Origin: an uncultured Candidatus Saccharibacteria bacterium
GTDB taxonomy: Bacteria; Patescibacteriota; Minisyncoccia; Phycocordibacterales; Zambryskibacteraceae
Assembly: GCA_964618905.1 (NCBI GenBank)
Contig: CAZUDK010000001.1
Location: forward strand, 13,982 to 77,981
Length of the DNA stretch: 64,000 bases
Direction: 5' to 3'
Numbering within the stretch: position 1 is the stretch's first letter; the number at the start of each line of letters is the position of its first letter. Position numbers and translations under genes: made by a program. Below, one piece after another: positions 16,801 to 34,196 of this stretch. A model generated the notes under the pieces. That model was given only the letters and a program-made list of their open reading frames with translations. It had not been told where the DNA came from and made no database searches.

Positions 16801-18273
16801 TGCTTCTGTCCTATCAACACTTGAACCTCTCAGACCAATGATATCCCAGTAAGAACAGTGCGACATCTCAAAAGCTTGATGCTCACCTCCATCTGCCGAA
16901 AGAAATGCCCTTCTTTCGCTTTGGGCTATCATGGTGATATGAGCATTTTCAGTACCATTTCTAGCATTAGCAGTACAGTCAATATCCGGCATGCCTGTAG
17001 TTTGCGGAGTATAGATGCCGTTCATTAATACGAGGATATCTCCAGGCCTGAGCTTTGGTATTGCTTTGCTGAAGGTCTTAAGAGGAGACACATCAGTAAG
17101 TCCGGAGTTGGAATCCGAACCGGTTGGAGAAATATAGTAAGCAGACCCAGAAGCATCAGGAATCTGACCAGTTTGATTCTTTGTAGAAATATTTACCTGA
17201 ATGCTTTCTGTGTTGCTTGAAGCTTTCTTTATGTCAGCACTTAAAGTATGCTGCCCGTCAGAAACAGACAGAGAGTCCCAAGTTGCCGTATAAGGAGCGG
17301 ATGTATCAGCAGAGCCAATATTTTTTCCATCTACTTTAAATTGAACACTCTCTACACGATCATTATCTGAAGGATCAACCTCCATTACTATTATGCCGGA
17401 GACCACCTGCCCTGAAACTGGTGAAGAGAACAAACTTACAGAATTTTGTTCAGAAGAATTTCCTGTGTCTGTACCTGCATCTTCATCATTACCTGGAGCT
17501 CTCACAGCAACAGCAGATGCCACCCATGATTGAGTAGCGCTTGTATTTAAAAGTTTCCAAGAGAAAGAAGCGCTTTCTACATTAGAGAACTTTCCTGCAA
17601 GACCCATGATACGCCTGCCGCTGGCAGAGTCTCCATCACCATCTAGTGTCCACAACACATTTTGTTTTCCGGGATTTGAAATTCCTAGATCTCTCTGGAC
17701 TATAAAGTTGCCAATCAAAAGATCAGTGGTGGCAGATGAAAGAGAAAGATTCGCAGTAGAGGTGTTTTGATTTCCTGAAACAGTGTATACCTGTCCGAAA
17801 GAATTATTAAGATTAGCTCCACTGATACTTAACACACCTGCTACAAAAGTAGTGTCCTTAGACACTGCCACATCAACGTTAGCAGTTCCTGTTGGAGGAT
17901 TTTTCAGATACCAAATTTCATTTCCGACGATATTAGATGACTGATTAAGAGGGGTTAGATCAATGCCTGAGTACTTTACGGAATTAATAGTTCCGCTTCT
18001 GTTGCCTAAAAGAACTATTAGTAGTCGATTAGTATCATTATTAGGAACTGTGTGTGGGAAAGAAAACTTATTTCCTATTGTTGAATACCCAGATTCAAAA
18101 GAAGAAGTTGAAGTTATTACAGGTGCAGAAATTTCAGAAGACAGCACATCTAATGTTGCAGCTGTAGGCAGCGCTTCATCATTAAAATTAAAATCTTTGA
18201 TTGCAAAAGAAGCAGTAAATACAACAACCGATATTCCTAAAATTAGAAATAAATTTTTACTTAAGGTACTCAT
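13816..18273 (-). CDS. Giant secreted or cell-surface protein of 1485 aa: signal anchor, Ig-like domains, parallel beta-helix, Big_2, TSP3 calcium-binding motif, two SH3b domains and a C-terminal coiled coil
   Basis: The N-terminus MSTLSKNLFLILGISVVVFTASFA is a signal or anchor sequence. The repeated SPY...DT...NGQHT...A.D..GN pattern fits Ig-like domains. The NxxG-rich repeats (e.g. VTIRRLYNNG...SNVIVENSILDG) fit a beta-helix. DSDNDGVNDGKDKCP is a TSP3 motif. Two NVRSQPS / NIRSGPS ...GW.AT.Y segments are SH3b domains. Confidence 0.85.
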   Translation of the reverse strand: MSTLSKNLFLILGISVVVFTASFAIKDFNFNDEALPTAATLDVLSSEISAPVITSTSSFESGYSTIGNKFSFPHTVPNNDTNRLLIVLLGNRSGTINSVKYSGIDLTPLNQSSNIVGNEIWYLKNPPTGTANVDVAVSKDTTFVAGVLSISGANLNNSFGQVYTVSGNQNTSTANLSLSSATTDLLIGNFIVQRDLGISNPGKQNVLWTLDGDGDSASGRRIMGLAGKFSNVESASFSWKLLNTSATQSWVASAVAVRAPGNDEDAGTDTGNSSEQNSVSLFSSPVSGQVVSGIIVMEVDPSDNDRVESVQFKVDGKNIGSADTSAPYTATWDSLSVSDGQHTLSADIKKASSNTESIQVNISTKNQTGQIPDASGSAYYISPTGSDSNSGLTDVSPLKTFSKAIPKLRPGDILVLMNGIYTPQTTGMPDIDCTANARNGTENAHITMIAQSERRAFLSADGGEHQAFEMSHCSYWDIIGLRGSSVDRTEAAGGKQRDVFQVVRSSNITLKKLLATHPNRYFNDHPIKILDSEYVLLEDSEIYDYQRHGLSVSRSQYVTIRRLYNNGRPNAPDEAIALYPASNVIVENSILDGEQHRGIEIHAGPNLLFNGLPGGHNNRLLGNISIGGVFAGYVDCRPVNVTGEDLGLRCPHGNVYKDYLVIGTQHPFMLRAGTGFTGTGGTHIENVTIINTPEAVLANEAPSDKGTDKICAGIPDGYECAFTVTNALVLGTSGNILSISTPKYKALMENSDIYNNSVQPSENISDTSGIYRRNISVNPKLAATPIYIPDDSPLKGAGKNGEDIGANILYRYVDGKLTNQPLWDLRTGAFPCGAIVPGVNDIPGQSCFDVHKRLNINAATLAAAYGTDIPTGSDNNTPPPVEVDNEYPEVSVESISSGDFVSGTIELKASASDNKGIAGVRFKIDGSNAGSEEIHSPYKILYDTANLTNGQHTITAVARDAYGNVTISSPVVFNVSNARPVDSISMSPNDAFLTVETGDTIQLSAVAKDSSGNLTGSPINWTTTNGVIASVSSTGLVTGHSVGTVVIYASAGGKSSHRAVTVVLPSMFPQGDSDNDGVNDGKDKCPGTPAALVSTVNQSGCVPPIANEFNIKSDLSDKDLKNVVNFELGVNNKGKIKFLESVSLVRDGERLNLDSYVHIEKNRITIESDKLPELNEPALITMYDIDMDNPVVYKDGQLCTNCTINSYSKTSGTLIFTVPGFSVYEVVEAPTEDTNPSTHSSGGIGYGIDYGDGADFDLSKLDDSDFEELTPVEAMQGTVKTLAALNVRSQPSLSASVLAVAPINSTGTVVSSEPVVADGYTWVKVQYSNGYTGWSATSYLSGLTTTATSYTPTAVSVTPVVTQTPTSSIISASDRIQSTSGLNIRSGPSLLSQVLSVVPNGVQGSVLSGPITADGYQWVEVKFDNGLAGWSATTYMVSLTHPIASPVYTGTSTDILRQQLILQIQQKIVELKQKISELEMQELSG

Positions 18274-18405
18274 AATTATTTATTTATCTTCTCCTATATG
18301 GAAGTCTTTATACTGCTACTGCTGAGATCACTATTAAAATTGTACATCCAATTTTTTTTGTATATATAAGACTTTTAAGATAGTGTGGATAGCATTTAAA
18401 AATTA

Positions 18406-18438
18406 TGTGCACCCAAATAATTCATACTCGGGTGCACA
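18406..18438. promoter_or_regulatory. 9-bp perfect inverted repeat (tgtgcaccc / gggtgcaca) with a 15-nt loop, inside a 330-bp AT-rich leader
   Basis: Seen directly in the sequence. It lies in the 18274-18603 intergenic region upstream of the giant surface-protein gene. Confidence 0.3.
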
Positions 18439-18603
18439 CATTAAATCTTTCAAGATATTAATTTCATTTAATAAAAATAGAGATCCATTATTATGATTTA
18501 AAAATGACTAAATACTTTATAAAGATTAATAAAGATACATTAAATTTAGCCTTGATATATCAATGTTTATATATCTTTTGCTGATAGATTTATTTAATCT
18601 TAA

Positions 18604-19185
18604 TTACTTTGCTTTTCTTCCAAGTTTATAGACTTTTCGCTTGATTCTTTCGCGTCGAGAAACACTTCCCGCATGTTTAAGATATCCGAATTTTTGAACC
18701 ATTATAGGAGAGAATCCTCCAAACCATAATATCCCCCGCTTGAGTTCATTAGTCGTATCTCCAAAGATGATGCGCTGAGCTAAAGGTACAGTATCTGAAG
18801 TAACAAACATTCTTGCGCTTCTGCCTTTAAGAAGTTTCTTCCAACTAAATTCACTGGTGAAGTGGAAAGCAAATCCTGGTATCCAAGTTCTATCAAAAAG
18901 TCCTTTTAGCAAAGCTGGCATTGTCGACCACCAAGATGGATAAAAAATTACGAAGTGATCGCACCAACGTATATTTTCCTGAAAAGAAACCAGACTCGGC
19001 TCAAGTTCCTGCACAAGCCTGTACCCGTGATGAAGTACCGGATCAAAATCCATATCAGCAAGATTCATTCTGCGCACTTGATGACCGACTTCATTTGCAC
19101 CTCTTTCGTAATGGTCAGCTAAAGTATAGTTGAAACTGTCATTATCCGGATGCCCAAGAAGAATAAAAATTTTTTTCTTTTTCAT
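18604..19185 (-). CDS. Flavodoxin-like NAD(P)H-dependent oxidoreductase (MdaB / KefF-like)
   Basis: MKKKKIFILLGHPDNDSFNYTLA...HFVIFYPSWWSTMPALLKGLFDR is the flavodoxin_2 signature. Confidence 0.7.
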   Translation of the reverse strand: MKKKKIFILLGHPDNDSFNYTLADHYERGANEVGHQVRRMNLADMDFDPVLHHGYRLVQELEPSLVSFQENIRWCDHFVIFYPSWWSTMPALLKGLFDRTWIPGFAFHFTSEFSWKKLLKGRSARMFVTSDTVPLAQRIIFGDTTNELKRGILWFGGFSPIMVQKFGYLKHAGSVSRRERIKRKVYKLGRKAK

Positions 19186-20080: not shown

Positions 20081-20242
20081 TTATGCAGCTGACTTTGGCA
20101 GTATCTTGTACATGCCGGTACCGCATACAGAGCAAGTGCCTTTAGCGGCCGGACGGCCGGGCTTGATTTCAGTCTTTGTGACATCCTTCATCTCCCGCTT
20201 CTCCTTGCACTTTACGCAATATCCTATGATTTTGTCTTCCAT
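20081..20242 (-). CDS. Small CxxC...CxxC zinc-ribbon protein (DUF5679-like)
   Basis: MEDKIIGYCVKCKEKREMKDV...GTCSVCGTGMYK. The ORF track extends it to 20452 through a hydrophobic N-terminus, which is probably not translated. Confidence 0.45.
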   Translation of the reverse strand: MEDKIIGYCVKCKEKREMKDVTKTEIKPGRPAAKGTCSVCGTGMYKILPKSAA

Positions 20243-20342
20243 AACATTAATTATATATTGATATACAATCTGACTATACACATTATCCCCAGTCAAGGCA
20301 ATACCTTGGTGGACTACATCCGCGTGAATTGGAACCAAATCC

Positions 20343-21122
20343 TTGAAGGATTGCAGGAGTGGCAAGCCATCTTGCAGCCCCAATATGCGGTCGTATAAGC
20401 CCATTATAGCTATGACAGAGCCAAAAGCACAGCAGAATACCAAGACCACCAAGTTCTCGTTCTACGAGGATTTTGATGGCAAATACCACAAGGTTGGAGA
20501 GATTCGTGAGCTTATCCCACAGTTCAAGGCGTTCTACCTTGCCGAGCGCCGTCGAGAACCAGAGCGAAGCGCTATCAAGATAATCAACGACTTCAACAAG
20601 AGCATCGCCCCATTCACTTTCTTTCCTTGGGAAAAGCAATACCGTTTATGGCGCAAGAAATGGGATGCTCAACTTTTGGCAGAACAAGGTTATCGAGAAG
20701 AACAACGAGCCGTGCGACAAATCATCAAAATGCGCGATGAACAGCAGGTTGCAATTGTGCCTGACGAATATGCGCTCGGGGCTGGCGCACGAACTCTTGC
20801 TGGCGAGCTGCTCAACGACGCAATGGAGATTCTCAAACAAGACCAAGAATCAGCAGAATTGTATGAAGACGATATTATCGTCAAACGTCGCAACTACGTG
20901 CTCAATGTGTTCAACTATGTAATGAAAGCATCTCACACCAAGGAAGCATTGAATATCAAAACAAACGCAGAGAAACGTGAGACCGCAAACTTTATGATGA
21001 GTATCTTGAATCGTGCAACCGCTGGCAAACTAACAGATGACGAAATGAGCTTGCTGCGTGCCTCGGTCAACCCTGGTCTTCGGGATGAGACCACAGATGT
21101 TCCTGTAACCACTCCTTCTTGA
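20343..21122 (+). CDS. Hypothetical protein, first gene of the island
   Basis: A 259-aa ORF. The start is uncertain and may be MTEPKAQQ at 20412. No recognised domain. Confidence 0.45.
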   Translation: MKDCRSGKPSCSPNMRSYKPIIAMTEPKAQQNTKTTKFSFYEDFDGKYHKVGEIRELIPQFKAFYLAERRREPERSAIKIINDFNKSIAPFTFFPWEKQYRLWRKKWDAQLLAEQGYREEQRAVRQIIKMRDEQQVAIVPDEYALGAGARTLAGELLNDAMEILKQDQESAELYEDDIIVKRRNYVLNVFNYVMKASHTKEALNIKTNAEKRETANFMMSILNRATAGKLTDDEMSLLRASVNPGLRDETTDVPVTTPS

Positions 21123-21258
21123 TAGGGCGATACACTGCGTCGAAAAGTGTCAGCAAGCTGGCTGCTTCTTCCATAGCAAGTTCATCAGAGATGTCCTCTC
21201 CTTTTTCTTCTTTGTAGATTCTTTTGAACTCCTCTAATGCTTCTTTTGAAACCATATT
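21067..21258 (-). CDS. Small hypothetical protein, tail of the RM operon
   Basis: From the internal start MVSKEALEEFKR. It is co-directional with the RM genes and abuts them. The 3' end overlaps a convergent ORF. Confidence 0.3.
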   Translation of the reverse strand, partial: NMVSKEALEEFKRIYKEEKGEDISDELAMEEAASLLTLFDAVYRPIKKEWLQEHLWSHPEDQG

Positions 21259-22078
21259 AGTACCAACATAACTCAACTGGTTCACCGATTTGTTCAGCAA
21301 TGTATTCAGTAACAGTGGTAAGGTCTCCAACCTTATCAATCAGCCCGTGTTCGAGCGCATCCATGCCAAGGTAAGTAAGTCCGTTAGCAAGCCCCGCGAC
21401 TTTTTCTCTTTCAAGATTTCTGTTTGATGCAACTTCATCAACAAACACTTCGTGTATCTTCTTTATGTCAGAAAGTACGGCTGCACGTTCCGTTGCGTTT
21501 AGTGGACGTGATGGGTCTCCTGCATCCTTGTGTGGAGCTGATGACAGCTCAACATAGGTATAACCCTCCTGTGCATTTTTGCGGGTCTCATCGAGATACG
21601 ATGCGGTAACACCGATACTCCCTACATCAGAAATGCGAGAGGCAAAAACCGTGTCTGCACCCGTAGCTGCCCAATATGCAGCAGATGCTCCGACAGAACG
21701 GATAAGAGCCACGGATGGCTTATCAAGAGCTTTGAGAGCGTTGGCTACTTCTTCGCCAGTGGTAATATCTCCGCCAAAAGAATCAATAGAAAGCAGGAAC
21801 GCTTTGATTTGTGGGTTACCTTCTGCATAGTGAATAGCATCCACAATGTATTCCGATGAAGCTACATCAGATTCAAGCCCCTCGGCACTCGTCTCGGTAG
21901 TGTACGTTGCCAAGTAACCGTTCATATTAGAAACAAGTACATTACAGCTTGCAGGTATTTCTGCGTCTGCGTATTCATCCTCATACGAACCAGCCCACGC
22001 GCCCACAATAAGAGCAATGATTGCTGTAATGATTATGAGAATGATTGCTGTTTTCTTTTTCATGATGTTTTCTCCCAT
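21257..22078 (-). CDS. Membrane-anchored S49 family serine peptidase (SppA-like)
   Basis: The N-terminal TM segment is [23 protein letters not shown]. The S49 core is [15 protein letters not shown]...[11 protein letters not shown]. The MKKK start overlaps the hsdR stop as ATGA. Confidence 0.75.
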
Positions 22079-25000
22079 ACGTCAGCGAATAATTCCGCTT
22101 GCTTCAATACCGTTTCAGTAGCGATTGCTTGCTTGTCTGGCGGATAACCAAATTGTGCAAGGGTTCGCTTCACAAGCACGCGCAGACGTGCCTGTACGTT
22201 CTCACGGATAGTCCAGTCAATTGAGGTGTTCTTGCGAACCTTATCAACAAGCACTCGTGCAAGGTCTCGTAGATTTTCATCACCAAGCACCTCTCGTGCG
22301 CTGTCGTTGATTGCAAGTGCATCATAGAAAGCAATCTCGTCATCAGAAAGTCCCAAGTCCTTACCCCGCGCATCCTCCTCGCTGATTTTCTTTGCAAGTT
22401 CAATAAGTTCCTGGATGACTTCGGAAGCGGTCAATAGATTGTTCTGGTACTTCTTGATTGTCTTATCAAGTAGTTCAGATAACTTCTTTCCTTGGATAGC
22501 ATTGCGACGCAAACGCAGCTTGATTTCATCATTCAAAACTTTGCGCAACAGTTCCATTGCCAAGTTGCGATGCTTCATCCCTTGAACTTCGGCAAGGAAC
22601 TCGTCAGACAACACAGAAAGGTCTGGCTTTTGTACACCAGCCGCTGCGAAAATGTCCACGACACCTTCGGCAACAAGTGCCTGGTCAACAATCTGGCGAA
22701 TAGCCGAACCGATGTTTTCAGTTCCTGGCGTACCTTCTGGTTCAAACTTTACCAGGCGTGCCTTGATTGCCTGGAAGAAGCCGACTTCATCACGTATCTC
22801 CATTGACGCTTCGCTCGGCACTGCAAGTGCGAACGATTGAGAAAGCGCCATAGTTTCTTTTATGAACCGCTCTTTAGCACTCGGTGTTTTGCGTTCTTTG
22901 CCTGATACACCAACTTCTTCGCCTTTATCTTGTCCAAGAATATGCTCCTGCGCTTCAAGGATAATACCGAGCTTCTGGTGTGTGTCAGCAGCGAAGTATC
23001 GCTGGTAGTCAAAGTCATGGAACATTGCTTTTACTACTTCGTATTTCTCCATCATCACCTCAATAGCTTGCTCCTGTGTATTTGTCGGTTCACCCTTACC
23101 GCCACTTTGCGTGTACACAGCAAGTGCCTTCTGCAAGTCAGCAGCAAATCCAATGTAGTCAACAATAAGACCTCCTGGCTTGTCCTTATAGACACGATTC
23201 ACACGGGCGATAGCTTGCATCAAGTTGTGCCCACGCATGAGCTTATCAACGTACATCGTATGCAAACACGGCACATCAAATCCTGTTAGCCACATGTCCC
23301 GCACAATAACGAGCTGCAATGGATTCGCGGCATCCTTGAATCGTTCAGCAAGTTTTCGGCGATTTTCTTTATTTGTATGGTGTGGTTGAAACTCTCGCGG
23401 GTCGCTTGAGCTTGCCGTCATCACCACTTTGATTGTGCCTTTATCCAAATCGTTACTATGCCAATTAGGACGTAGTGCGACTATCTCCTCGTATAGCTCA
23501 ACAGCAATACGACGACTCATTGCTACTATCATGCCTTTGCCAGTAAATACTTCTTGGCGTGCTTCAAAGTGTTCAACAATATCCTTCGCTACTTGTTTTA
23601 TTCGTTCACGATTACCAACAATAGCTTCAAGCTGTGCCCACTTTGCTTTGGCTTTTTCTTTGGTGGTGAACTCAACACCTTCTGCTACTGCTTCAACGTC
23701 TTCATCCATCTCTGCTTTCTTGTCGTCAGGTAGGTGCACCTTCACAAGTCGGCTTTCATAGTAGATTGGCACCGTTGCCTTATCTTCAACAGCACGCTGG
23801 ATGTCATACACATCAAGATATTCACCGAATACAGCAGGGGTTGATTTGTCTTCTTTTTCAACAGGCGTACCAGTAAAACCAATGAATGAAGCGTTAGGAA
23901 GTGCGTCGCGTAGATACTTCGCATTACCATATCGAGTGATTGCTTCATCGTCTTTGAAAACTGTTCGAGCAGCAAACCCATATTGACTACGGTGCGCTTC
24001 ATCAGCCATCACAACGATATTCTTGCGGTCAGTGAGCATGTCGTACGTCTCACCTCCGTTTTCGGGAAAGAACTTCTGAATCGTAGTAAATACAATTCCT
24101 CCTCCCGCTGTTTGTAGCAATTTCTTCAAGTGTTCACGACTTTCTGCCTGCACTGGTTCTTGTCGTAGCAAACCACGACTTGCAGCAAAGGTATCAAAAA
24201 GTTGGTCATCCAAATCATTGCGGTCGGTAATAACAACAACGGTTGGGTTGTCGAGAGACAAAACCACCTTACCTGTATAGAACACCATAGAGAGCGACTT
24301 GCCCGAACCCTGCGTATGCCACACCACTCCAATTTTTCTTTCACCATGTTCAGCTGTTGCCTGTACTGTTGAGCCAATCGCTTTGTTCACCACGTAATAC
24401 TGGTGGTAAGCGGCAATTTTCTTGATAGTTTCGACGATGGTTTGTCCCGTTTTTGCATCTTCGCGTCGCGCTTTTTCAAAAACCGTGAAGCTGCGTACTA
24501 CATCAAGGAGCACCTCTGGTATGAGCATCTCTTGAACCAAAACCTGCATCTGCGGAGTGGTCTTTTCTTTCTCACGTTTTCCTTCTGGGGCACGCCATAC
24601 AGCGAAACGCTCCCAATTTGTAGTAAGAGCACCTGCTTTAGCGTCGATACCATCTGATGCGACAAGCACGCTGTTGTATGCAAAGAGCTGTGGTATTGCT
24701 CGCTTGTAGTTGTCGAGTTGTGTATATGCTTTATGTACTGTGGCATTTTCATCCACTGGATTTTTGAGTTCAATGACAACGAGCGGCAAGCCGTTCACGA
24801 TAAGTACCACGTCTGGGCGCTTGCTTGAATTATCAAAAGGAACTGTGAATTGGTTAGAAACAACCAAGTCATTGTTGCGTGCATTATCAAAATCTATGAG
24901 ATGAACAATCTCTCCACGTTGTTCTCCGTCGTTGTAGTCGTGTACGCTTACACCATCAGTAAGCATCCGTTGGAACTCCTCATTTGCTTCCGCAAGGAGT

Positions 25001-25227
25001 GGTTGTGACGCCACTTGCAGCACCTTCTTGATGGCGTCTTCTCTTGCATCTTCGGAAACATTTGGATTGAGGCGTTCTACGGCAGCACGTAAGCGTGATT
25101 GCAAAATAACCTCACGCAAATCACCGCGCTCTGCTTCTTGCTCGTCTGGGGCAAGGTAGGTGTAGCCCTGCTGTTCAAGCAGTTCGACAACCCATTTTTC
25201 TATATCGCTTTCGTAGATTCGGCTCAT
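22060..25227 (-). CDS. hsdR: Type I restriction enzyme R subunit
   Basis: 1055 aa. Helicase motifs include HTQGSGKS and MADEAHRSQ, with characteristic HsdR length and a C-terminal helical domain. Confidence 0.95.
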
Positions 25228-25229
25228 AA

Positions 25230-26036
25230 CTAAAATAATGTTTTTGATATCTTACGCACGCCAGTAATAAGGTCATCAATCTCTTGCTCCTTCGGCTCCC
25301 GACCTTTCTTGTGGTCACAGAGATTGCGAATATCAGCAAGAAACTGAACATTCCTCCACACAGGAACATCAATCACTGTGGCATTCTTGAGGGCGTCGTT
25401 ATAGTCAGCAATTGTCGGCTTCGCTTTCTTGATAGCTGTACTATGGTTGGCACAAACCTCTCTCAAGTGTGCCTCCAACACCACACCAGCCAAAGCACCA
25501 GCCGCTCGCAGAAAACCCTTTTTCTTGAGTTCTTCTGCTGCGTCCAATTCGTTATCAAACAAGTCTGCTTGAAGAAGTGCTCGTATATCAAACAACGAAC
25601 TCTCAAAGGTCTTTTTGAGTGCTTCTATAATGTTCACCTGCTGTTTGAACTTCGGAACAGCAGCATCCTGCCCAACAACCTTTGTTTTTTCATACCCACG
25701 AGTGACACTCATACCGTTCAGATAATCCTGTATGACATAGTTTTCATAGTTGATTGAGTCGGTTTTTCGATTCTTTGCTGGTCGGTAGTACGACACAAAA
25801 TCATCAACTCGTGACGGTAGAATCTGCTGCAAAACAGCAAGGGCTTCTGAATACCATGGCTGGTATTCTTCACTAAATTGCCCGACGGCTTTTTTGGTTT
25901 TTGCAACCGTGTCCTTGTCCAGCCCTGACCGCTCAAGTTCTTCCGCACTAAAACAATCAATAATCATCCTGTAATACAGGACATTGCCCTTGTCCACGAG
26001 TTTCTTTATGTCTTCTTTGTATTTTTCTGTTTTCAT
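25230..26036 (-). CDS. DUF4145/HEPN-like protein with an Rx4H motif, embedded between hsdS and hsdR
   Basis: The C-terminal [13 protein letters not shown] gives R-x4-[21 protein letters not shown] resembles the DUF4145 helical core. It is tightly coupled, with a 4-nt overlap to hsdS and a 2-nt gap to hsdR. Confidence 0.5.
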
Positions 26037-27259
26037 ACTTTTATTTCGCCACTTATTAGCCGAGGTAACAATGCGTCACGTGTAGAAGATAACGCTTTGA
26101 TACTTCGTATATTCAAAAGGATTTTGTCGAAAATCGGAGATGAGATTTTTGAAAATGATTCAAGTAATTTTGCAGGGGGTAAAGCGGTTTCAATACGACG
26201 AAACGAACTTTTACTAATTTCCATGAACGTAGAACCATTCGCTGCTGCAAGAATGAGGGGCATGTTTGCTTTCAACCAAAGAAAAGTAAAGAGGTTGTCC
26301 CAAGGACTGCGTGCATTGATAGCTATGTATCCTTGATTGATTGCAACTGGTATAGCAGAGATTGCGATGTATCCAATTGGGGCACGTGAAGAAAGAAGTA
26401 AAGTACCTACTGGCAGTAGTCCACTACTAATACGTGTCAATCCCTTATCTGTAATCCGACTGTTGGTATCGAGCAGGAAAGCGTCTGGTCTATCAGACAA
26501 ATCCTTTGGTGTCGTCCAGTGAATGTCTCCGTCCCAATACTCGGGATTTTTTGTTGAGGGCGTTGTGCCTCCTTTTACGTCGAGTATATCGTCGAGTGTG
26601 CCCATTTCCCAGTCATGAGGTAGTGCATCATCAATCGTTGGCTTCAAAAACCACTCATTGAAAATTGTTTGAGCAATTCGTTCTAACGTCTCGTTTTGCT
26701 TTTTGAGTAATTCAATTTTGTCATCCAAACATTGAAGAACATCTACGATTGATTGTTGTGTTGTTACTGGTGGTAAATCAATCACAGTTGATTTGAGATT
26801 GGTGACGGGTTGAGCAAGTGACGGGACGCCGACCTGATTGGCGTATGTCATGAGTTGATGCAGACCCTGTGGAGAGTGAAAGTAGTAAGTTAGAAACTCG
26901 GCAGAAAGTTTCTTATTTGGTCGTAAATAAAATTGTCGTTGGGAAAGAATGTATCGTTCGTATTTTGAGTTTTTAGGAATATAGGCGACTTGTCCAATGT
27001 TTCCAGCATGAGTAAAAACTACATCACCTCGTTGTACATTCGCGCTCGAAAGTCGGTCAGCATGTTCAGGAGTAATAAAATTGTACGCTACGTCAGCAAG
27101 ACGGATACCACGAAGGTGAGCACCGCTAATTACAGGCACCCCCTCTTCAACAAAAGTATCAACCTTGATATTAGACCCAAACGGACCCATCGCAATTTTC
27201 TCGGCAACTTCGCCGAGTGTTGTTTCCTGCCATTCTTTTTTAGTCGTTGTCTTCGTCAT
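26033..27259 (-). CDS. hsdS: Type I restriction-modification specificity subunit
   Basis: Two target-recognition half-domains are separated by the conserved helical spacer LKKQNETLERIAQTIFNEWF. Confidence 0.9.
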   Translation of the reverse strand: MTKTTTKKEWQETTLGEVAEKIAMGPFGSNIKVDTFVEEGVPVISGAHLRGIRLADVAYNFITPEHADRLSSANVQRGDVVFTHAGNIGQVAYIPKNSKYERYILSQRQFYLRPNKKLSAEFLTYYFHSPQGLHQLMTYANQVGVPSLAQPVTNLKSTVIDLPPVTTQQSIVDVLQCLDDKIELLKKQNETLERIAQTIFNEWFLKPTIDDALPHDWEMGTLDDILDVKGGTTPSTKNPEYWDGDIHWTTPKDLSDRPDAFLLDTNSRITDKGLTRISSGLLPVGTLLLSSRAPIGYIAISAIPVAINQGYIAINARSPWDNLFTFLWLKANMPLILAAANGSTFMEISKSSFRRIETALPPAKLLESFSKISSPIFDKILLNIRSIKALSSTRDALLPRLISGEIKV

Positions 27260-27263
27260 GGTT

Positions 27264-27896
27264 TTATTCTGTTTGCCCGTCGCGCTTGGCTATGTTTTCG
27301 CGGTCTTCTTCTGGCAAGCTGCCATACAAAGCATCAATCTCTTGTGGCTCGGTAATCATTTTTTCTGCAATGATATTCACCAAGCGAAAAAGTGCTTCGG
27401 CAGTTTGTGGCTGGTCATCAAGGTTTATCTGTCCAGGATGCACAGCATGGTTGCCGATAACTCGTACCGTATCGAGCATTTGCTGTACCTTCTTCGGTAG
27501 TCCGTTCTCAACAAGAGTTGCTATATCGGTATTGAGGTTTTTGCCTTCACCTCCAACAGATGCACAAAGCTTCTGAATAGCGAGACGTAAAAGAGCGGCT
27601 GCTGCTCGTGGTGACTTTTGTACAATTTGCGCGGCTTCCTCGTAGTCACGCTTCACTTCTGTCGGCAGGTCACTGCTTGGCTTCTCAACAGGAGTATTCG
27701 TTGGTCGTATCATTTCACCGTAATACCAAACAGAAAAATCCTTACACTGGCTACAAATCGCAATACTCAATCCTTGAATATGTGCGTTGCCTTGTGTCCA
27801 CGTACCACTCCATGTTTGGTGTGCATACGCAGTACAATGCGGGCAGTTGAACGCATTTCCATTTAGATATGGGACTGTGTAGGGTATGTCTGTCAT
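27264..27896 (-). CDS. DUF4145/HEPN-like protein with an N-terminal zinc ribbon, embedded between hsdM and hsdS
   Basis: CPHCTAY...CSQC forms the zinc ribbon. [15 protein letters not shown]...[14 protein letters not shown] gives the Rx4H motif. Confidence 0.55.
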
Positions 27897-29521
27897 AGGT
27901 TGAATCCAATTTTCTTTAGCTGCTTCTCAATCTCGACATTGAGTTTTTCCTCCTCCTTTATCTGCTCCTTCAAAGTAGAGGTGAGGCGTGCCATTTTTTC
28001 TTCAAACGGCTCACCATCATCTTCAATAACGGCTGCACCGACATAACGTCCAGGAGTAAGAACGTAATTATGCTTTTGAATATCGGGCAATGTGGCAGAC
28101 TTACAGAAACCTTTGATGTCTTTGTATTTGCTTTCTTTGCTGCGCCATTCGTGATACGTGCTGGTGATTTTCTTCACCACTTCGGGCGTGAACTCACGAT
28201 GCGTACGGTCTACAAGATGTCCCATCTCCGAAGCGTCAATAAAGAGCACTTCGCCTGTACGCTTGCGGTCTCCGTTTCCGAGACGCTTGCGTGATATGAA
28301 CCAAAGACATGCAGGAATACCAGTGTTATAGAAAAGTTGTTTTGGAAGGGAGACAATACAATCTACGAGGTCAGCATCAACAATGTTTTTACGAATCTCA
28401 CCCTCGCCACTTGATTGAGAAGAGAGGGAGCCATTCGCCAAGACCATTGCCATGACACCCTTCGGAGCAAGGTGATGAATCATGTGCTGCATCCATGCAA
28501 AGTTGGCATTGTTTGCAGGTGGTGTGCCGTACTGCCATCGTGGGTCATTTTTCACAATATCCCAACCCCAGTCACTTTGATTGAATGGTGGATTGGCGAT
28601 GATGTAGTCAGCTTTCAAGTCAGGATGTGCGTCTTTGAGGAAAGAACCTTCGCTATTCCATTGCACCTGCGAACTATCAATACCGCGAATGGCAAGGTTC
28701 ATGCGAGCCAAACGATAGGTGGTGTGATTGCTTTCTTGTCCGAAGATAGAAATGTCATCAATACGTCCACGATGTGAGAGTACAAACTTCTCACTCATCA
28801 CAAACATACCGCCAGAACCACAAGCGGGGTCATAAACGCGTCCTTTATGTGGCTCAATCATTTCAACCATCAGCTCAACAATACTGCGAGGTGTATAGAA
28901 CTGTCCGCCTTTCTTTCCTTCGGCTGCCGCAAACTCACCAAGGAAGTATTCATACACACGACCGAGGATGTCTTTTGATTTTGCAGCTTCATCGCCCAAC
29001 GCAATGTTCCCGATAAGGTCAATGAGGGCACCGAGCGCGAGTTTATCTATGTTTGGAGTGGCATACACCTTCGGCAAAATACCCTTGAGGGTAGGGTTCG
29101 CTTTCTCAATCGCATCCATTGCTGCATCCAAATCCTTACCGACGCTTGGTTGCTTTGCTCGTGAATGAAGAAATGACCATCGCGCCGTTGGTGGTACCCA
29201 AAAGACATTTTCTGCACGGTATTCATCTGCATCTTCGGGGTCTGCGCCCGCATATTCAGCATCACCAGATAAAAGTTTCTGATGCAGCACCTCGAAGCTA
29301 TCAGAAATGTATTTCAAAAAAATGAGACCGAGAACAATGTGTTTGTATTCCGCTGCGTCTATGTTTTTGCGGAGTTTATCAGCAGCCGAAAAAAGCTGGC
29401 TTTCAAAGCGTCCGTTTGTATTCTCTGTACCTGCGTCTTTTTTGCTTTTAGTTTTCATTTCTTTTTTGATGCCCGCTTCTTGGGTTGCACGTTCACGTTT
29501 GCTTCTATGAACTTCGCCCAA
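27893..29521 (-). CDS. hsdM: Type I restriction-modification N6-adenine DNA methyltransferase
   Basis: [10 protein letters not shown] is the SAM motif and IIANPPF is the catalytic NPPF. The probable true start is MKTKSKKD at 29458, which overlaps the upstream HTH gene stop as ATGA. Confidence 0.95.
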
Positions 29522-29661
29522 TCGTCTTTATGTATTCGCCAGGTACCCAGGCGTACCGCCTTTAGTTTTCCTTCCTTGATATAGCGATACAAAGTGCGTT
29601 CGCTGATACCGAAACGCTCCACTATATCCTTTACCCGCAATAACTCTTCTTTGTTTGGCAT
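29455..29661 (-). CDS. Excisionase/AlpA-family HTH protein at the head of the RM operon
   Basis: [53 protein letters not shown] is an Xis-type winged HTH. The ORF track extends it to 29745. The palindrome tgccatggca lies upstream. Confidence 0.55.
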
Positions 29662-29985
29662 AATGATGGCTCTTACGGGGAGTATTTTAGCACTTTTCTG
29701 CCATTTTTGCCATGGCAGCAGAGGCAGAGTTGGCAAATTATCCACAGAACATGTTCTTGCGTTCTACTTTCAAGAATAGATATAATCAGGATGTCGGTAG
29801 TTCATTGACTAAAAAGTTTGCAGACAATTAGCAAGGGTACGAGCATTAGCCAGGCATAACTAAAGCGCTCGCTTTAGTCGCAGAGGCAGCAGCATTACGC
29901 CCCGCATAAAAAGTAGCAAGTAACACGCAATCGCGTTGTTGTTTCCTTCTTTTTGCGCGGGGCTTTCTCTTTTGAGCAACCCCAC

Positions 29986-30010
29986 CAAAAAACGGGTTGC
30001 TTTTTAGTTT
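29986..30010 (+). terminator. Rho-independent terminator inside the island's noncoding stretch
   Basis: gcaaccc-caccaaaaaac-gggttgc is followed by tttttagttt. Confidence 0.45.
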
Positions 30011-30423
30011 GTGACACCGACGTTCGCCTATGTTGAGCGTCGAGACATGCAAAAAAATAATGGGCAAGGATGCCGATAATCTCACCGATGAAAACATCGA
30101 GCAGATTAGAGATGACTTGTACATTGTTGCAAATCTTGCGTTCTCACATTGGCAACAAAGCTACGTATCAACCGATACGCAGCAAGCACTTCCTGGAAAC
30201 AGTAAGTGAGTCATGAGTGATAGCCGCCAGCTGGCGGTAGCGGACGAGTGGAGCGGTAATCTCCACCTGCTGACCCCGAATCACCACGAACGCTGGACTT
30301 GGAACTGACGAGGACGAATCACCCCTTTATTGTTCCTTCTTCCGCTGCCCCGAAGGGGTACCGCCATGACAAACGCAATGCAGGTCGAGTATTGCTATTA
30401 GCAACAACAATCAGTGAAAGAGT

Positions 30424-30588
30424 ATGCGTGACAAACACTACCCAAATCGAACCGTACGCGTAGCCGATGACGTATGGGAAGCAATCAAGTCGGTAAGGAA
30501 AGAGTCGGGCTTGTCCTGGAATCTCTTTCTGAAATTGGTAACCACTAAATTGAAAAGCCATGAGCGAAACGAGAAAGAAACCGAGTGA
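30424..30588 (+). CDS. Small MobC-like ribbon-helix-helix protein of 54 aa
   Basis: NRTVRVADDVWEAIKSVRKESGLSWNLFLKL resembles the MobC/RHH R.V.E.E...A...G.S.S motif. It is below the ORF-track cutoff. The 3' end overlaps the next ORF. Confidence 0.4.
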   Translation: MRDKHYPNRTVRVADDVWEAIKSVRKESGLSWNLFLKLVTTKLKSHERNEKETE

Positions 30589-30760
30589 AGGTGAACCCTG
30601 TCCTTACTGTGGCGCAAAAGTCGTGAGAGCTGTACCGAGGCAAAAAGCACGAGGTCATCGTGCCTACTACTACGAATGGTATCTCCGATGCTCCAACGTG
30701 AGGTGTCCAAAGGGATACAAAGACATGCCCAATGAGGCACGTCGCAATTGGGACGAATAA
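30560..30760 (+). CDS. Small zinc-ribbon protein
   Basis: CPYCGAK...CSNVRCPKG. Confidence 0.4.
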   Translation: MSETRKKPSEGEPCPYCGAKVVRAVPRQKARGHRAYYYEWYLRCSNVRCPKGYKDMPNEARRNWDE

Positions 30761-31104
30761 CTTTCGGTGCGAATTATTCCTCATGGAGAGGGCATCCCCC
30801 GCCGAAGAAAAGGGTCGAAAACCAAAACTCCCACCACCAATTTCTACTTTCCACAAAAACTACACGACATAGACAAGGCAACACTCATTGAGTTCATTCT
30901 GCATAACGGAGCATAACCCAGGTATTACCTGTCGTAGTCGTGTGAGAGGAGAAAAGTACCGTCCACGTGGATACCGAGCAGGTTGAAGCGTGGAAATAAA
31001 AACAGCCCTCGTGGGGCAATTGCACTAAATGGTTCTTTGATGAAGTTCAAATGAATCAAACGAGAACTTCAACTAACAAATGAATCATAGCAAAGTGTCT
31101 CACT

Positions 31105-31377
31105 TTGGGTCAAGTGGATAAAACACACATATTCAAATCATTGTATTGCACTAAAGAACCAAAAGCAGATATGAACGACGAAATGAAAAACCAAAGCGGG
31201 CGGGCGGCAACGATAAGTGTAAGTGCTGTTGCTGCCGACCTCGGTGTATCACGCGCAACGGTGTTGCGTTGGATTCGTGCAGAAAAAATCCAGGGCTTCT
31301 TCCGAATAGGAACGAAGTGGCTCATCCGTCGAGAGGATTATGAGCATTTTATCAACCGTCAGATAGGCGAAAAGTAA
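31105..31377 (+). CDS. Excisionase/MerR-like HTH DNA-binding protein
   Basis: ISVSAVAADLGVSRATVLRWIRAEKIQGFFRIGTKWLIRREDYEHFI is an Xis-family HTH. Confidence 0.6.
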   Translation: MGQVDKTHIFKSLYCTKEPKADMNDEMKNQSGRAATISVSAVAADLGVSRATVLRWIRAEKIQGFFRIGTKWLIRREDYEHFINRQIGEK

Positions 31378-31379
31378 CT

Positions 31380-31607
31380 ATGAACAACAAACAAGACAAC
31401 AATGAAGATAAGAAGGATTGGTTAGGACAACTTGTCTTCTGGCTCACTATCGGTGTTCTCGTGTTTAGCATCACAACTTTGCTTGGCTATCTCAATGAGC
31501 ATGTTGATTTTGAGGTGACATCGAGCAATGTCGGCTTTGTGGAGTTTTCTATCTTGGTAGCATTGGTCGTTCTTTTGACTCTTGGCGGATTGTTCAGGAA
31601 AAAATAA
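31380..31607 (+). CDS. Small two-TM membrane protein
   Basis: Two hydrophobic segments. It is coupled to the flanking genes. Confidence 0.4.
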   Translation: MNNKQDNNEDKKDWLGQLVFWLTIGVLVFSITTLLGYLNEHVDFEVTSSNVGFVEFSILVALVVLLTLGGLFRKK

Positions 31608-31609
31608 CC

Positions 31610-32515
31610 ATGAATAAACTCATCACACAATTTGTACACTACCTTTCAGCCGAGCGTAACTTCTCGGAACGTACGGTTCGTGCGTATGAGTTAGATTTGC
31701 AGAAGTTTGTTGAGTTTTTGGAATCTCGCAACACTACAGACATTTCAGAAGTTGCTCGTGATGACATTCGCGCTTTTCTTTCAGAACTAACTAAAAACGG
31801 AATCAAGAAGCCAAACAGTGCCGTAACTCGTGCTCGCAAGCTCTCCTCAATCAAGTCCTTCTATAAGTATCTTGTTCGTTACGGAGTGCTCGAATCAAAC
31901 CCCGCCGCAGATGTTGAAACACCAAAGCTGCCTCATAAAGAACCGAATTATCTTACTCCCCAAGAATATGATGCGTTGCTTGTAGCAGTACGGCGTGCCG
32001 CAACACCTTTTTACCTTGCGCGTGACCTTGCTATCGTCACCACTTTCCTCAATACAGGTGTTCGTCTATCTGAACTTGTAGGGCTGTCTCTCAATAGCAT
32101 CAATCTCGAATCATCAAATGCTTTTATCAAGGTGCGCGGTAAGGGAGACAAAGAGCGCACCATCCCACTAAACGACAACGTTGCAGCAACACTGCGCAAG
32201 TATGTAGCGAAACGCCCAGAAGTTGATACTAACCAACTGTTCATCAGTAGATTGGGAAAGGGGCTTTGCGCAAGAAGCGTATATCACCTTATCAAGCGCT
32301 ACCTAAAAGAAGCAGGAATCAAGAAAGACCGTATTGGTGTTCACTCACTACGTCATACATTCGGCGCTTCACTCCTCGCAAAGAATGTGAACCTTGTCGT
32401 CATTCAAGAACTTCTGGGGCACAAAAAACTTGAAACAACCCGCAGATACCTTCACATCAACAGCGTTGACCTACGCAATGCGGTTGACCGTTTGGCATTA
32501 GACACACAACCATGA
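31610..32515 (+). CDS. Tyrosine site-specific recombinase (XerC/XerD-like integrase)
   Basis: An N-terminal SAM-like core-binding region is present. HSLRHTF and RRYLH carry the catalytic His and Tyr. It is 301 aa. Confidence 0.85.
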   Translation: MNKLITQFVHYLSAERNFSERTVRAYELDLQKFVEFLESRNTTDISEVARDDIRAFLSELTKNGIKKPNSAVTRARKLSSIKSFYKYLVRYGVLESNPAADVETPKLPHKEPNYLTPQEYDALLVAVRRAATPFYLARDLAIVTTFLNTGVRLSELVGLSLNSINLESSNAFIKVRGKGDKERTIPLNDNVAATLRKYVAKRPEVDTNQLFISRLGKGLCARSVYHLIKRYLKEAGIKKDRIGVHSLRHTFGASLLAKNVNLVVIQELLGHKKLETTRRYLHINSVDLRNAVDRLALDTQP

Positions 32516-34053
32516 ACACTCCTTCAACAAAACCAAAAGCAATAATCTATATTCGCGTCTCATCGGATGAGCAATATGAGGGCACGAGTCCAGGATTCCA
32601 ACGGAAAGAATGTTTGAGATACTGCGAGCAGAGAGGTTTTGATGTTGTTGCGGAGTTTGAAGAACCAGAATCAGCAAAGGATTTGTCTTTGAATAACCGA
32701 AAAGAATTGTTGCGTTCAATTGAGTTTTGTCGAAAACATAAAAATCAAATCCAAGCGTTTGTGGTATTACGCGTCAACCGCTTTGCTCGTAATACAGAAG
32801 ACCACTTTATTATCCGTAAAAAATTACTCTCTTACGGAACGACCTTGCACTCTGTTACAGAACCTATCGGAAATAAGCCGATTGAGAAACTCGTAGAAAC
32901 AGTTGCAGCTGCTTCTGCTGATTATGAGAATGCCATTCGAAAGCAACAATGCTCCGATGGTATGAGTGAAAAAATCAATCAAGGTATCTATCCTTGGAAA
33001 CCACCATTGGGTTATGCATGCGGTCAGTTCAAAAAACGTGGTCTGAAAAAGACAGAAGCCGATAAGCCAGACACTGTGCGTTTTCGCTTTATTCAACAGC
33101 TCTTGAAAAAATGTCTTGAGGAGAAAATCAAAAGTAATGTCGAACTCGCTAAACTGCAAAAAATTGATGAGATTTTTTCAAACAAGTTTTACGCAGGCAT
33201 TATCGTCAATCCGTTCACAGGTAAAGAGGTTGAGGGAAAACATGAACGAATGATTACGCCAGAAGAGTTCAACCAGATTCAACTTATCCGCAAAGGCAAG
33301 GCGCCAGTCATTATCAAGAAGAAACTAAAAAATCATCCTCATTTTCCACTAACACGGGATATGAAGTGCGTATGTAGTGTGGGCATGAGTGGCAGTCACC
33401 CCCGTGGAAATGGAGGTGTATATTCTTACTACCATTGCCACAACAGGGATTGTCCGCTTTATTGCAAGAACATACCTGCTGATAAAGTGCACTCTGATTT
33501 TCTGGCGTGGCTTGGAGGAGTAACACCAAAGCAAGAGTTTCTCGACCTATTCCGTGAGATTGTGATTGATGTCTGGCGCAACAATACTTCACTGCTTGAA
33601 GATGCTATCAAACAACAACAAAAGGAGCTTGAGGAGCTGCGACAAAAGAAGTTTGAATATGTTGAGCTAATTCGTAAGGGCACTATCAGTGAGGACTTTG
33701 GTAAAGAAGTTATTGAGCAGACAGATAACGAAATTGCAGCAAAACAAATCACTATCCGTGAGAATCACTTGGATAAGCTCGATATCGAAACCGCAGTATC
33801 CTACGCCACCAACTTTATTTCAGACCTTCCACGCACCTGGATGGATTTGGACATTGACGCAAAAAAGCGGTTCCAAAAACTCGTTCTTCCCGAAGGAATC
33901 GTGTACGATAAAAACAACGGATTTGGAACCGCCAAACTGGGCTTTATTTACGAGATGAATCAGCAACTTGTTGCTGAAAAATCAGATTTGGTGGACCCTA
34001 CCGGATTCGAACCGGTGACCTCCTCATTGCAAATGAGGCGCTCTACCAACTAA
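32512..34053 (+). CDS. Large serine recombinase (resolvase catalytic domain plus recombinase and zinc-ribbon domains)
   Basis: AIIYIRVSSDEQ carries the catalytic Ser. A Cys-rich ribbon (CVCSVG...YYHCHNRDCPLYC) is present. The start overlaps the tyrosine recombinase stop as ATGA. The last roughly 20 codons read through tRNA-Ala. Confidence 0.8.
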   Translation: MNTPSTKPKAIIYIRVSSDEQYEGTSPGFQRKECLRYCEQRGFDVVAEFEEPESAKDLSLNNRKELLRSIEFCRKHKNQIQAFVVLRVNRFARNTEDHFIIRKKLLSYGTTLHSVTEPIGNKPIEKLVETVAAASADYENAIRKQQCSDGMSEKINQGIYPWKPPLGYACGQFKKRGLKKTEADKPDTVRFRFIQQLLKKCLEEKIKSNVELAKLQKIDEIFSNKFYAGIIVNPFTGKEVEGKHERMITPEEFNQIQLIRKGKAPVIIKKKLKNHPHFPLTRDMKCVCSVGMSGSHPRGNGGVYSYYHCHNRDCPLYCKNIPADKVHSDFLAWLGGVTPKQEFLDLFREIVIDVWRNNTSLLEDAIKQQQKELEELRQKKFEYVELIRKGTISEDFGKEVIEQTDNEIAAKQITIRENHLDKLDIETAVSYATNFISDLPRTWMDLDIDAKKRFQKLVLPEGIVYDKNNGFGTAKLGFIYEMNQQLVAEKSDLVDPTGFEPVTSSLQMRRSTN

Positions 34054-34064
34054 GCTAAGGGCCC
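33989..34064 (-). tRNA. tRNA-Ala(UGC)
   Basis: Folded by hand. The acceptor is GGGCCCU/AGGGUCC with a G3:U70 pair. The anticodon loop is UUUGCAA. The T-loop is UUCGAAU. The discriminator is A and CCA is encoded. Confidence 0.85.
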
Positions 34065-34122
34065 AATAAAAGGAAAGTATAGTAGACAAGCAGGGAAAAA
34101 TCAATCAAAATATCGGCCAATA

Positions 34123-34196
34123 GGGCCTATAGTATAGTAGTAACACACGTCCATGGCATGGACGAGTCCGGGGTGCGATTCCCCGTAGGTCCACCA
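34123..34196 (+). tRNA. tRNA-Ala(GGC)
   Basis: The acceptor is GGGCCUA/UAGGUCC with G3:U70. The anticodon loop is AUGGCAU. The T-stem is CGGGG/CCCCG. CCA is encoded. It is divergent from tRNA-Ala(UGC) across a shared 58-bp region. Confidence 0.8.

Follow-up and report, generated by a model that had tools for sequence, protein, structure and literature searches.

A 13.69-kb element lies in the stretch of DNA analysed here, 64,000 nucleotides from an uncultured Candidatus Saccharibacteria bacterium (contig CAZUDK010000001.1, positions 13,982 to 77,981), which is referred to as the window. The element was very probably inserted at the 3' end of a tRNA-Ala(UGC) gene by its own large serine recombinase (LSR), whose gene contains the attachment site of the element (attP). 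A preliminary description of the window had placed an integrative island at this tRNA gene, with the recombinase genes at its tRNA-proximal end and a candidate attL at its far end. All of this was borne out, and the borders can be given to the base (20306-33996, 13,691 bp), with the 9-bp repeat TTGGTGGAC at both ends. The proximal copy of this core is made up of 1 nt downstream of the tRNA, CCA, the discriminator and the first 4 acceptor-stem bases. In the mechanism that we propose, the LSR would insert the element at the discriminator/CCA end of tRNA-Ala(UGC). The LSR gene is cut, its native tail (VDYIRVNWNQILEGLQEWQAILQPQYAVV) being stranded at the far end (20306-20398), and the resident gene closes with 18 codons read from the antisense tRNA. 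Because the crossover falls at the CCA/discriminator end, the tRNA remains whole without any tRNA duplication.

The far end had been described as a degenerate repeat of the tRNA 3' end. The similarity is present, both in the 9-bp core and between GAATTGGAACC (20326-20336) and the T-arm sequence GGATTCGAACC (34003-34013) that it matches, but the segment is a displaced C-terminal coding piece of the LSR and not a copy of the tRNA. As DNA, the repeat did not rise above background: neither a repeat finder nor local alignment of the window with the tRNA region brought it out (best unrelated scores 25-27); any given 9-mer is expected about 0.5 times per 64 kb, both strands included. As protein, in contrast, the far end was clearly recognised. 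A profile of 35 intact homologue tails, run with filters off against all stop-to-stop frames of the window, gave a unique match on the plus strand (20093-20395, E = 5.7e-8), the next best match having an E value of 0.61. The motif TTGGAACC (20329-20336) lies inside this displaced tail. When 32512-33996 was joined in silico to 20315-20398, an LSR of 522 residues was obtained that ends like the intact homologues. The far end thus holds the last part of the LSR gene, displaced, which places attP within this gene, in its final 30 codons. For this island the predicted attP is …AAATCAGATTTGGTGGACTACATCC… / …GCTGAAAAATCAGATTTGGTGGACTACATCCGCGTGAATTGGAACC…, and the predicted attB (the chromosomal site) is …GGCAATACCTTGGTGGACCCTACC… / …CAGTCAAGGCAATACCTTGGTGGACCCTACCGGATTCGAACC…. 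At the predicted circular joint, the open reading frame (ORF) 20412-21122 begins 13 nt past the native LSR stop, on the same strand. It is extremely improbable that the resemblance at 20306-20336 arose by chance and that the true border is elsewhere: the DNA match, being no better than background, would permit this, but the profile match is unique in the window and 15 other elements keep the same register.

The LSR ORF overlaps the tRNA, in antisense, by 65 nt, which is 21 codons and a stop (20 codons had been counted earlier). The overlap is thus real, and it is not incidental, being a family-wide signature of the intragenic attP. By its sequence the enzyme is an LSR on all criteria that could be checked, and attP x attB catalysis through a 2-bp staggered crossover is predicted for it. 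The resolvase-type catalytic domain (PF00239, 1e-23) covers residues 10-158 and is accompanied by a Recombinase domain (PF07508), while PF13408 is annotated on many homologues. In a comparison of 25 homologues, R15, V16 and S17 were invariant, as were the cysteine and histidine residues C286, C288, H308, C309 and C314. An AlphaFold2 model of the homologue P0037 (mean pLDDT 77.8) shows the usual LSR domains, with long helices at 353-430; the tail forms a terminal helix (513-537) after a low-confidence linker at the crossover codons. The top PDB matches of this model in Foldseek were DNA complexes of full-length serine integrase, Bxb1 and LI integrase (E 3e-17 to 7e-10). In NCBIfam the LSR is weakly similar to CcrB and XisF, far below the family cut-offs (44.6 bits vs 900).

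A search for LSR homologues returned 527 proteins at E <= 1e-5, and the C-termini were compared for the best 120 of these 527. Most of the 120 end in antisense-tRNA peptides (GFEP/GIEP/RIEL), for example ..LVDPxGFEPxTSSLQMRRSTN and ..VDLRGIEPR.HPCHG, which correspond to various tRNA genes translated in antisense. A conserved native tail, ..LVD..R.SWNQII.EL..WQ.LQ..., is present in about 37. A census was also made at the DNA level, with 80 loci (one genome per species, mostly Patescibacteria) to which the loci L001 and L002 and the window were added, giving 83 sequences. A minus-strand tRNA gene lies over the LSR 3' end in 48 of the 83 (Ala 23, Glu 14, Met 3, Lys 3, Arg 2, Leu 1, Ile 1, Tyr 1). 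The remaining 35 comprise 7 with an intact native tail, 6 in which the contig ends at that very point, 11 partial and 11 unclear sequences; several of the unclear ones have tRNA-like tails without an ARAGORN call. The tail profile also matches upstream of the LSR, on the same strand, in 17 sequences.

Both junctions could be put in register in 15 elements of 4.2-13.7 kb, the window element being the largest, and later also in L147. The mapped elements have an identical core of 4-12 bp, with the same Val codon and the discriminator every time. GT[GA] is part of every core; it encodes the Val of the LSR and is complementary to tRNA C74, A73 and position 72. Because other elements have cores as short as GTGC, TGGTGC, TGGTAG and GTGGAC, the crossover is confined to 4 bp, G-T-R-S, the complement of tRNA positions 74-71; these correspond to the C that opens CCA, to the discriminator and to two bases of the acceptor stem. 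The displaced tails are open for 26-37 codons in all mapped elements, as they are in intact genes. A circular form was found for one relative: L083 is a MEGAHIT contig of 7,380 bp with an exact terminal overlap of 141 bp, corresponding to a circle of 7,239 bp, and it carries an intact LSR with native tail (P0037) in mid-contig. L083 is thus the episomal form of a family member. The window element may likewise excise as a circle, L083 being the one relative for which a circle was observed.

Some further observations were made at these junctions. Ten contigs (L011, L012, L017, L037, L045, L053, L064, L080, L144 and L146) stop exactly at the junction of LSR 3' end and tRNA; an assembler produces such breaks where a sample contains the integrated form alongside the empty or circular one. 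In L049 (11506-11560) the LSR runs into neither a tRNA nor its own tail but into a further, diverged P'-like tail (MVDRNQKYWNTFVKI), an arrangement suggestive of tandem or nested elements at a single site. L147 has a second TTGGTAGCC (40-60), matching the 3' end of tRNA-Glu and situated some 50 nt left of the distal junction as mapped; this may be the scar of an earlier insertion.

The geometry of the att sites was examined by aligning 24 P' arms and 48 tRNA B' arms on the core. The P' consensus is ..TGGTGGACt.C.Tg.GA.Tta.tTGGAACCA, that is ..GTGGAC..(15)..TGGAACCA, and the B' consensus is ..TGGTgG.CCc..gggGAaTCGAACC, that is ..GTgG.CC..(10)..TCGAACC. The inner 6-9 bp are alike in P' and B' and co-vary with the target (GTGGAC in Ala elements, GTAGCC in Glu elements). 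The core and the outer TNGAACC motif are separated by 5 bp more in P' than in the tRNA T-arm of B'. In known LSRs, the zinc-ribbon motif of attB is shifted 5 bp toward the centre relative to attP (Rutherford et al.; PMC3783163), and the TNGAACC shift matches this geometry, by which the zinc-ribbon domains tell attP from attB. The Asn codon of the W-N-Q motif is AAC, with wobble C, in 96% of the tails, a DNA-level constraint added to that on the protein. It may be noted that three tRNA-Glu elements (L075, L077 and L078) have a hairpin, gacttctc..gagaagtc, in the P arm within 30 nt before the core (e.g. L077 4669-4698). A T-run follows it on the tRNA strand, the segment still codes for ..KDFS.DEKSF..., and the hairpin could give the tRNA a terminator after integration.

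Several observations weigh against the proposed insertion by an intragenic attP. Neither the predicted attB nor the predicted attP junction of this island had an exact match in JGI metagenomes (0 matches each), and this island has yielded neither an empty site nor a circle. The 152-residue protein of the left flank has no homologue besides itself; the only other contig with this protein, a 1.8-kb Logan contig, ends 40 nt before the region. Profile scans with Pfam and PHROGs detected no recognisable replication or transfer gene in the window element, unlike relatives with Prim-Pol. As regards the att sites, the shift analysis was moderately peaked (0.38 at 5 bp and 0.36 at 4 bp, with a secondary peak at 9-10 bp), no clear dyad symmetry of the P arm and B arm with P' and B' was found in the mapped elements, and the B arms, which lie downstream of the tRNA, show no relationship from one element to another; the last two points weaken the description of a full att site. 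Intact LSRs with native tails also occur on large non-CPR (Candidate Phyla Radiation) contigs with no tRNA nearby. Because of these, the tail is an ancestral part of the protein, and the intragenic attP is not necessarily used by every member of the family.

The same junction scans, together with the small difference in GC content from the flanks and the replication and transfer genes not recognised, would fit an old insertion that has become ordinary chromosome and is no longer mobile. We consider this improbable. None of the recombination genes is truncated, and the displaced tail is complete down to its stop codon. A 95-99% identical copy with exchanged cargo pieces occurs in another sample (L144), relatives at the same tRNA carry other cargo, and many contigs from the family end precisely at the junction.

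The tyrosine and serine recombinase genes had been described as coupled by ATGA, and this holds: the stop of the tyrosine recombinase gene (31610-32515) overlaps the LSR start at 32512. The tyrosine recombinase falls below the XerC/XerD cut-offs of NCBIfam and has many homologues in its own search. In a classic tRNA island this enzyme would be the integrase, and the LSR would be a passenger whose ORF runs into the tRNA by accident. For such an island speak the intact Xer-like recombinase with its SAM-like N-domain near the tRNA-proximal end, the excisionase-type helix-turn-helix (HTH) genes in the island, and the fact that tyrosine integrases usually insert at tRNA 3' ends (PMC4383910). This explanation is nevertheless very improbable. 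The far end has no displaced tRNA fragment, with 9 bp of identity only (repeat finder and local alignment), and is instead marked, in frame, by the displaced LSR tail. The same LSR-tRNA junction is found in more than 40 loci without a tyrosine recombinase. Most loci of the family lack this enzyme; in the census it lies directly upstream of the LSR only in the clade of the window (L001/L002, L003 and L060). In these the two proteins have diverged in parallel, with LSR identities of 67-78% and tyrosine recombinase identities of 58-69%. With the loci beyond the census included, the tyrosine recombinase adjoins the LSR in L001, L003, L060, L140, L144, L146 and L147.

The preliminary description had not said which of the two recombinases does what; the evidence gives integration to the LSR. 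In the locus L140, the tyrosine recombinase is 93% identical to that of the window, and the backbone is 81-84% identical up to the first LSR codons. Its LSR is only 36% identical to that of the window and reads into tRNA-Glu(CUC). L145, L146 and L147 are further elements with both recombinases at tRNA-Glu or tRNA-Ala. Because most loci have no tyrosine recombinase, and because a 93%-identical one is found at tRNA-Glu with a 36%-identical LSR, it is the LSR, and not the tyrosine recombinase, that determines the target tRNA. The tyrosine recombinase is a conserved backbone gene that is kept when the LSR cassette is exchanged. It may serve the circular form, for instance in resolving multimers, or have some other accessory role.

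We also considered what the exchange of the C-terminal LSR helix on integration might mean. It could be a built-in state switch, the native tail denoting the episomal state and the tRNA-derived tail the chromosomal state; we put this forward tentatively and regard it as somewhat unlikely. The two LSR forms may differ in activity or stability. Among the 37 native tails, 7 end in -AA and 15 in -A, while the reconstructed tail of the window ends in -AVV. Tails ending in -AA are found in the LSR homologues P0035, P0064, P0066, P0067, P0109, P0118, P0119 and others. The -AA endings are reminiscent of ssrA-type degradation tags, and a degron role is hinted at by these sequences. Integration would also separate ORF 20412-21122 from the recombinase operon. 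If the switch is real, the two forms would differ in stability or in competence for integration versus excision, and the element would detect whether it is integrated, either in place of a separate directionality factor or alongside one; ORF 20412-21122 would then be co-expressed with the LSR from the circle only.

The alternative is that the element is as described and the swap is functionally meaningless, both LSR forms acting alike and directionality being provided by a separate factor such as an HTH_17 protein. This is quite possible, though we lean slightly against it. The tRNA-derived tails vary with the tRNA and the frame, clearly without selection as protein, and in the AlphaFold2 model the tail is a lone helix behind the low-confidence linker. 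The island has excisionase-family genes, and LSRs normally use separate recombination directionality factors (PMC3783163; PMC12286644). Against a neutral swap, the tail is conserved as protein well past the P' arm of about 25 bp: in its outer part, E-L-x-x-W, the residues are kept and the wobble positions are variable, so that this part is selected as protein. The reading frame of the tail is open in all mapped integrated elements, and the tail is kept in relatives away from tRNAs.

Among known systems, the SSV1-type integrases of archaeal viruses and plasmids also have attP inside the integrase gene and a tRNA target; integration partitions the gene and excision restores it. These are tyrosine recombinases, the split into two large parts inactivates the gene, and a long core matching the tRNA is duplicated. 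The family described here has a serine recombinase instead, exchanges no more than the final 27-30 codons and uses a core of 4-12 bp. The gene is partitioned in the same sense, with attP inside the integrase ORF and the intact gene on the circular L083, the split enzyme not being an SSV-type tyrosine recombinase. In cluster G mycobacteriophages (BPs, Brujita), it is the repressor gene that has attP in its 3' end; on integration at a tRNA the repressor receives another C-terminal tail, and its properties are switched. What is lost there is a degradation tag of ssrA-like type, and these phages integrate by means of a tyrosine recombinase. In the present family, the split gene is that of the serine integrase itself. 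If the switch described above is real, it would be the serine-recombinase counterpart of SSV-type partition and of mycobacteriophage integration-dependent immunity.

The large serine integrases of phages and of integrative and conjugative elements (Bxb1, phiC31, A118/LI, TP901-1; 4KIS, 9IU2, 9DXH) share with the LSR the architecture of resolvase, recombinase and zinc ribbon/coiled coil domains, a short core instead of long att repeats, and a motif placed 5 bp outward in attP. In known LSR elements, attP lies beside the int gene and the target is usually a protein-coding gene that is disrupted (PMC5704250; PMC10083194); PMC10083194 does not mention tRNA. Here, by contrast, attP is within the 3' end of int, and insertion takes place at the extreme 3' end of a tRNA gene, which stays intact while the integrase has its own C-terminus exchanged. 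SCCmec CcrAB, Tn4451 TnpX and other LSR islands are alike in their very short flanking repeats and in that they insert into a conserved gene or at its 3' end (PMC5704250); they lack an intragenic attP or tRNA target, and sequence similarity to them is far below cut-offs.

Islander-type islands and tycheposons are likewise site-specific tRNA-adjacent islands with defence or adaptive cargo and sometimes replication genes (PMC4383910; bioRxiv 10.1101/2020.12.28.424599). In the former, tRNA and tmRNA gene targets are assigned to tyrosine integrases (PMC4383910), and in tycheposon-type elements 910 of 937 have tyrosine integrases (bioRxiv 10.1101/2020.12.28.424599). Their tRNA is regenerated from a copy borne by the island and a displaced tRNA fragment results, whereas no such fragment occurs here; the distal repeat is 9 bp and not tens of bp, and the tyrosine recombinase does not fix the target. 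A literature search found no account of tRNA-targeting LSRs with an intragenic attP, its coverage being incomplete and a prior description possible. The island itself is ordinary in kind, and its integration module is a new arrangement on the serine-integrase theme that is widespread in CPR bacteria.

The features of the island and its surroundings are given in Table 1. The cargo had been described as a defence operon, and this was confirmed: HsdR, HsdM and HsdS of a type I restriction-modification (R-M) system lie in one cluster, in which a PD-T7-4 gene is embedded, and a defence function is predicted. The HsdM start is likely to be the ATG at 29458, because the corresponding gene of L144 has 521 codons. 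L144 is the same island (95-99% nucleotide identity) on a contig that ends inside the tRNA; its left junction lies about 1.3 kb outside the 10-kb flank examined. None of the window proteins is identical to the corresponding L144 protein, and a cluster look-up gave singletons. In the slot of the 268-residue ORF of the window, L144 has a gene for a 378-residue SduA_C (Shedu-like) protein (3292-4428), and the first target-recognition domain of its hsdS differs. From these two copies, the slot between hsdR and hsdS seems to be a place where defence genes are exchanged within the type I R-M operon. L001 has a homologous module at the same tRNA-Ala(UGC), with a type III-like methylase/helicase-nuclease pair and a caspase-helicase gene as cargo. 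Other family members carry Prim-Pol replication proteins, DUF5659, DUF4238 and R-M genes. A shufflon, in which the tyrosine recombinase would invert hsdS segments, was rejected, there being a single hsdS and no partial copies.

Table 1. Features of the island, its junctions and its immediate surroundings (positions in the window)
Feature	Position	Strand	Basis or remark
Flanking DUF5679 gene	~20081-20245	minus	Pfam; promoter-like site 20301->20273, minus strand
Chromosomal B arm of attB	20250-20305	strandless	Promoter region of flanking DUF5679 gene
Distal core repeat copy TTGGTGGAC	20306-20314	strandless	Left island end; mapped in register with proximal copy
Displaced native 3' end of LSR gene, P' arm of attP	20306-20398	plus	Translates to LVDYIRVNWNQILEGLQEWQAILQPQYAVV; stop 20396-20398
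ORF, 236 aa, no family match	20412-21122 (longer ORF from 20343)	plus	Position from sequence
S49 (SppA-type) peptidase, N-terminal membrane helix	21257-22078	minus	Pfam PF01343, 1e-28; NCBIfam SppA_dom; also in L144
HsdR, type I restriction enzyme R subunit	22060-25227	minus	Pfam; PADLOC REase_I, 1197 bits
268-aa ORF, variable slot of R-M operon	25230-26036	minus	No match in Pfam or other family libraries including PADLOC and NCBIfam
HsdS, type I specificity subunit	26033-27259	minus	Pfam PF01420; PADLOC
DUF4145 / PD-T7-4 defence protein	27264-27896	minus	Pfam, 8e-18; PADLOC PDLC04109, 2e-85, full length
HsdM, type I methyltransferase	27893-29458	minus	Pfam; PADLOC; ORF extends to 29521
Excisionase-family HTH_17 protein, 68 aa from internal ATG	29455-29661	minus	Pfam HTH_17, 6e-13; TIGR01764
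Small ORF	30030-30209	plus	One of three small plus-strand ORFs
Small ORF, weak Arc-like match	30424-30588	plus	E within ~1e-3 to 8e-3
Small ORF, zinc ribbon, weak Lar-like match	30560-30760	plus	E within ~1e-3 to 8e-3
Second excisionase-family HTH_17 protein	31171-31377	plus	Pfam, 3e-10; PHROG excisionase, 1.4e-11; TIGR01764
Small membrane protein, 75 aa, backbone gene upstream of tyrosine recombinase	31380-31607	plus	Homologous position in L140, L144, L146
Xer-like tyrosine recombinase, 301 aa	31610-32515	plus	Pfam PF00589/PF02899; SAM-like N-domain
LSR, integrated form, 513 aa	32512-34053	plus	Pfam Resolvase + Recombinase; codons from 33997 on (PTGFEPVTSSLQMRRSTN) are antisense tRNA
Proximal core repeat copy TTGGTGGAC	33988-33996	strandless	Right island end; contains crossover
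tRNA-Ala(UGC)	33989-34064	minus	ARAGORN; Rfam, 73.9 bits; intact; 3' part is B' arm of attB
tRNA-Ala(GGC)	34123-34196	plus	ARAGORN; Rfam

The preliminary description had also listed a MobC-like gene and had called the island mobilizable. Neither could be upheld: four profile libraries and the PDB sequences gave no match for the former, and no relaxase or MobC match was obtained for the island ORFs in Pfam, PHROGs and NCBIfam, no oriT (origin of transfer) search having been made. The product of ORF 20412-21122 had no match in Pfam, PHROGs, NCBIfam, PADLOC or the PDB sequences. The first HTH_17 gene (29455-29661) has the same gene position in L001, L140 and L146. One of the two HTH_17 proteins may be a regulator or directionality factor, the product of 31171-31377 being the candidate. 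The gene-poor part at 29.7-31.1 kb contains no non-coding RNA by Rfam, which gives only the two tRNAs in the window.

The textbook view has serine integrases disrupting protein-coding targets, with attP outside int, and leaves tRNA 3' ends to tyrosine integrases; the LSR family breaks both rules. Mobile elements of CPR/Patescibacteria are poorly known, and the family appears to be a main route of island traffic in them, defence islands included. The split-gene signature, an LSR ending in antisense tRNA together with an orphan tail upstream, allows islands to be delimited to the base in metagenome-assembled genomes. For engineering, the family offers LSRs with a near-universal tRNA motif (acceptor end and T-arm) as attB, and natural cassette swaps that retarget one backbone from tRNA-Ala to tRNA-Glu. 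The self-splitting integrase gene also makes LSR directionality without a dedicated factor directly testable.

A few observations concern the surroundings of the island. GC content had been said to rise abruptly at about 20280. A rise exists (island 0.451, left flank 0.423, right flank 0.437), but the difference, though real, is small, and the change is gradual near 20.4 kb. The two tRNA-Ala genes (UGC on the minus and GGC on the plus strand) are divergent, with 58 nt between them, and the island uses the UGC gene only. The right flank contains ddl, a uvrC-like gene, uvrA and uvrB, in synteny with L001 (ddl-uvrC-uvrA). In the left flank, an AT-rich intergenic stretch with no recognisable feature (18274-18603) lies between a 1485-residue ORF and a flavodoxin-like gene, the GC content being 0.32 for 18001-19000.

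A viral origin was also considered. The relatives in IMG/VR have at most 29% identity, and those in GenBank phages less than 28% with partial coverage; the family therefore does not correspond to a recognised phage group. In three IMG/VR viral contigs of 41-53 kb (L085, L086 and L087), LSRs 28-29% identical to that of the window lie at the ends of predicted prophage contigs and read into antisense tRNA, with the tails ..RDSNPRPAA, ..LTGFEPMFPG and ..LPGIEPGLTD. The arrangement of intragenic attP and tRNA target may thus extend well beyond the CPR family.

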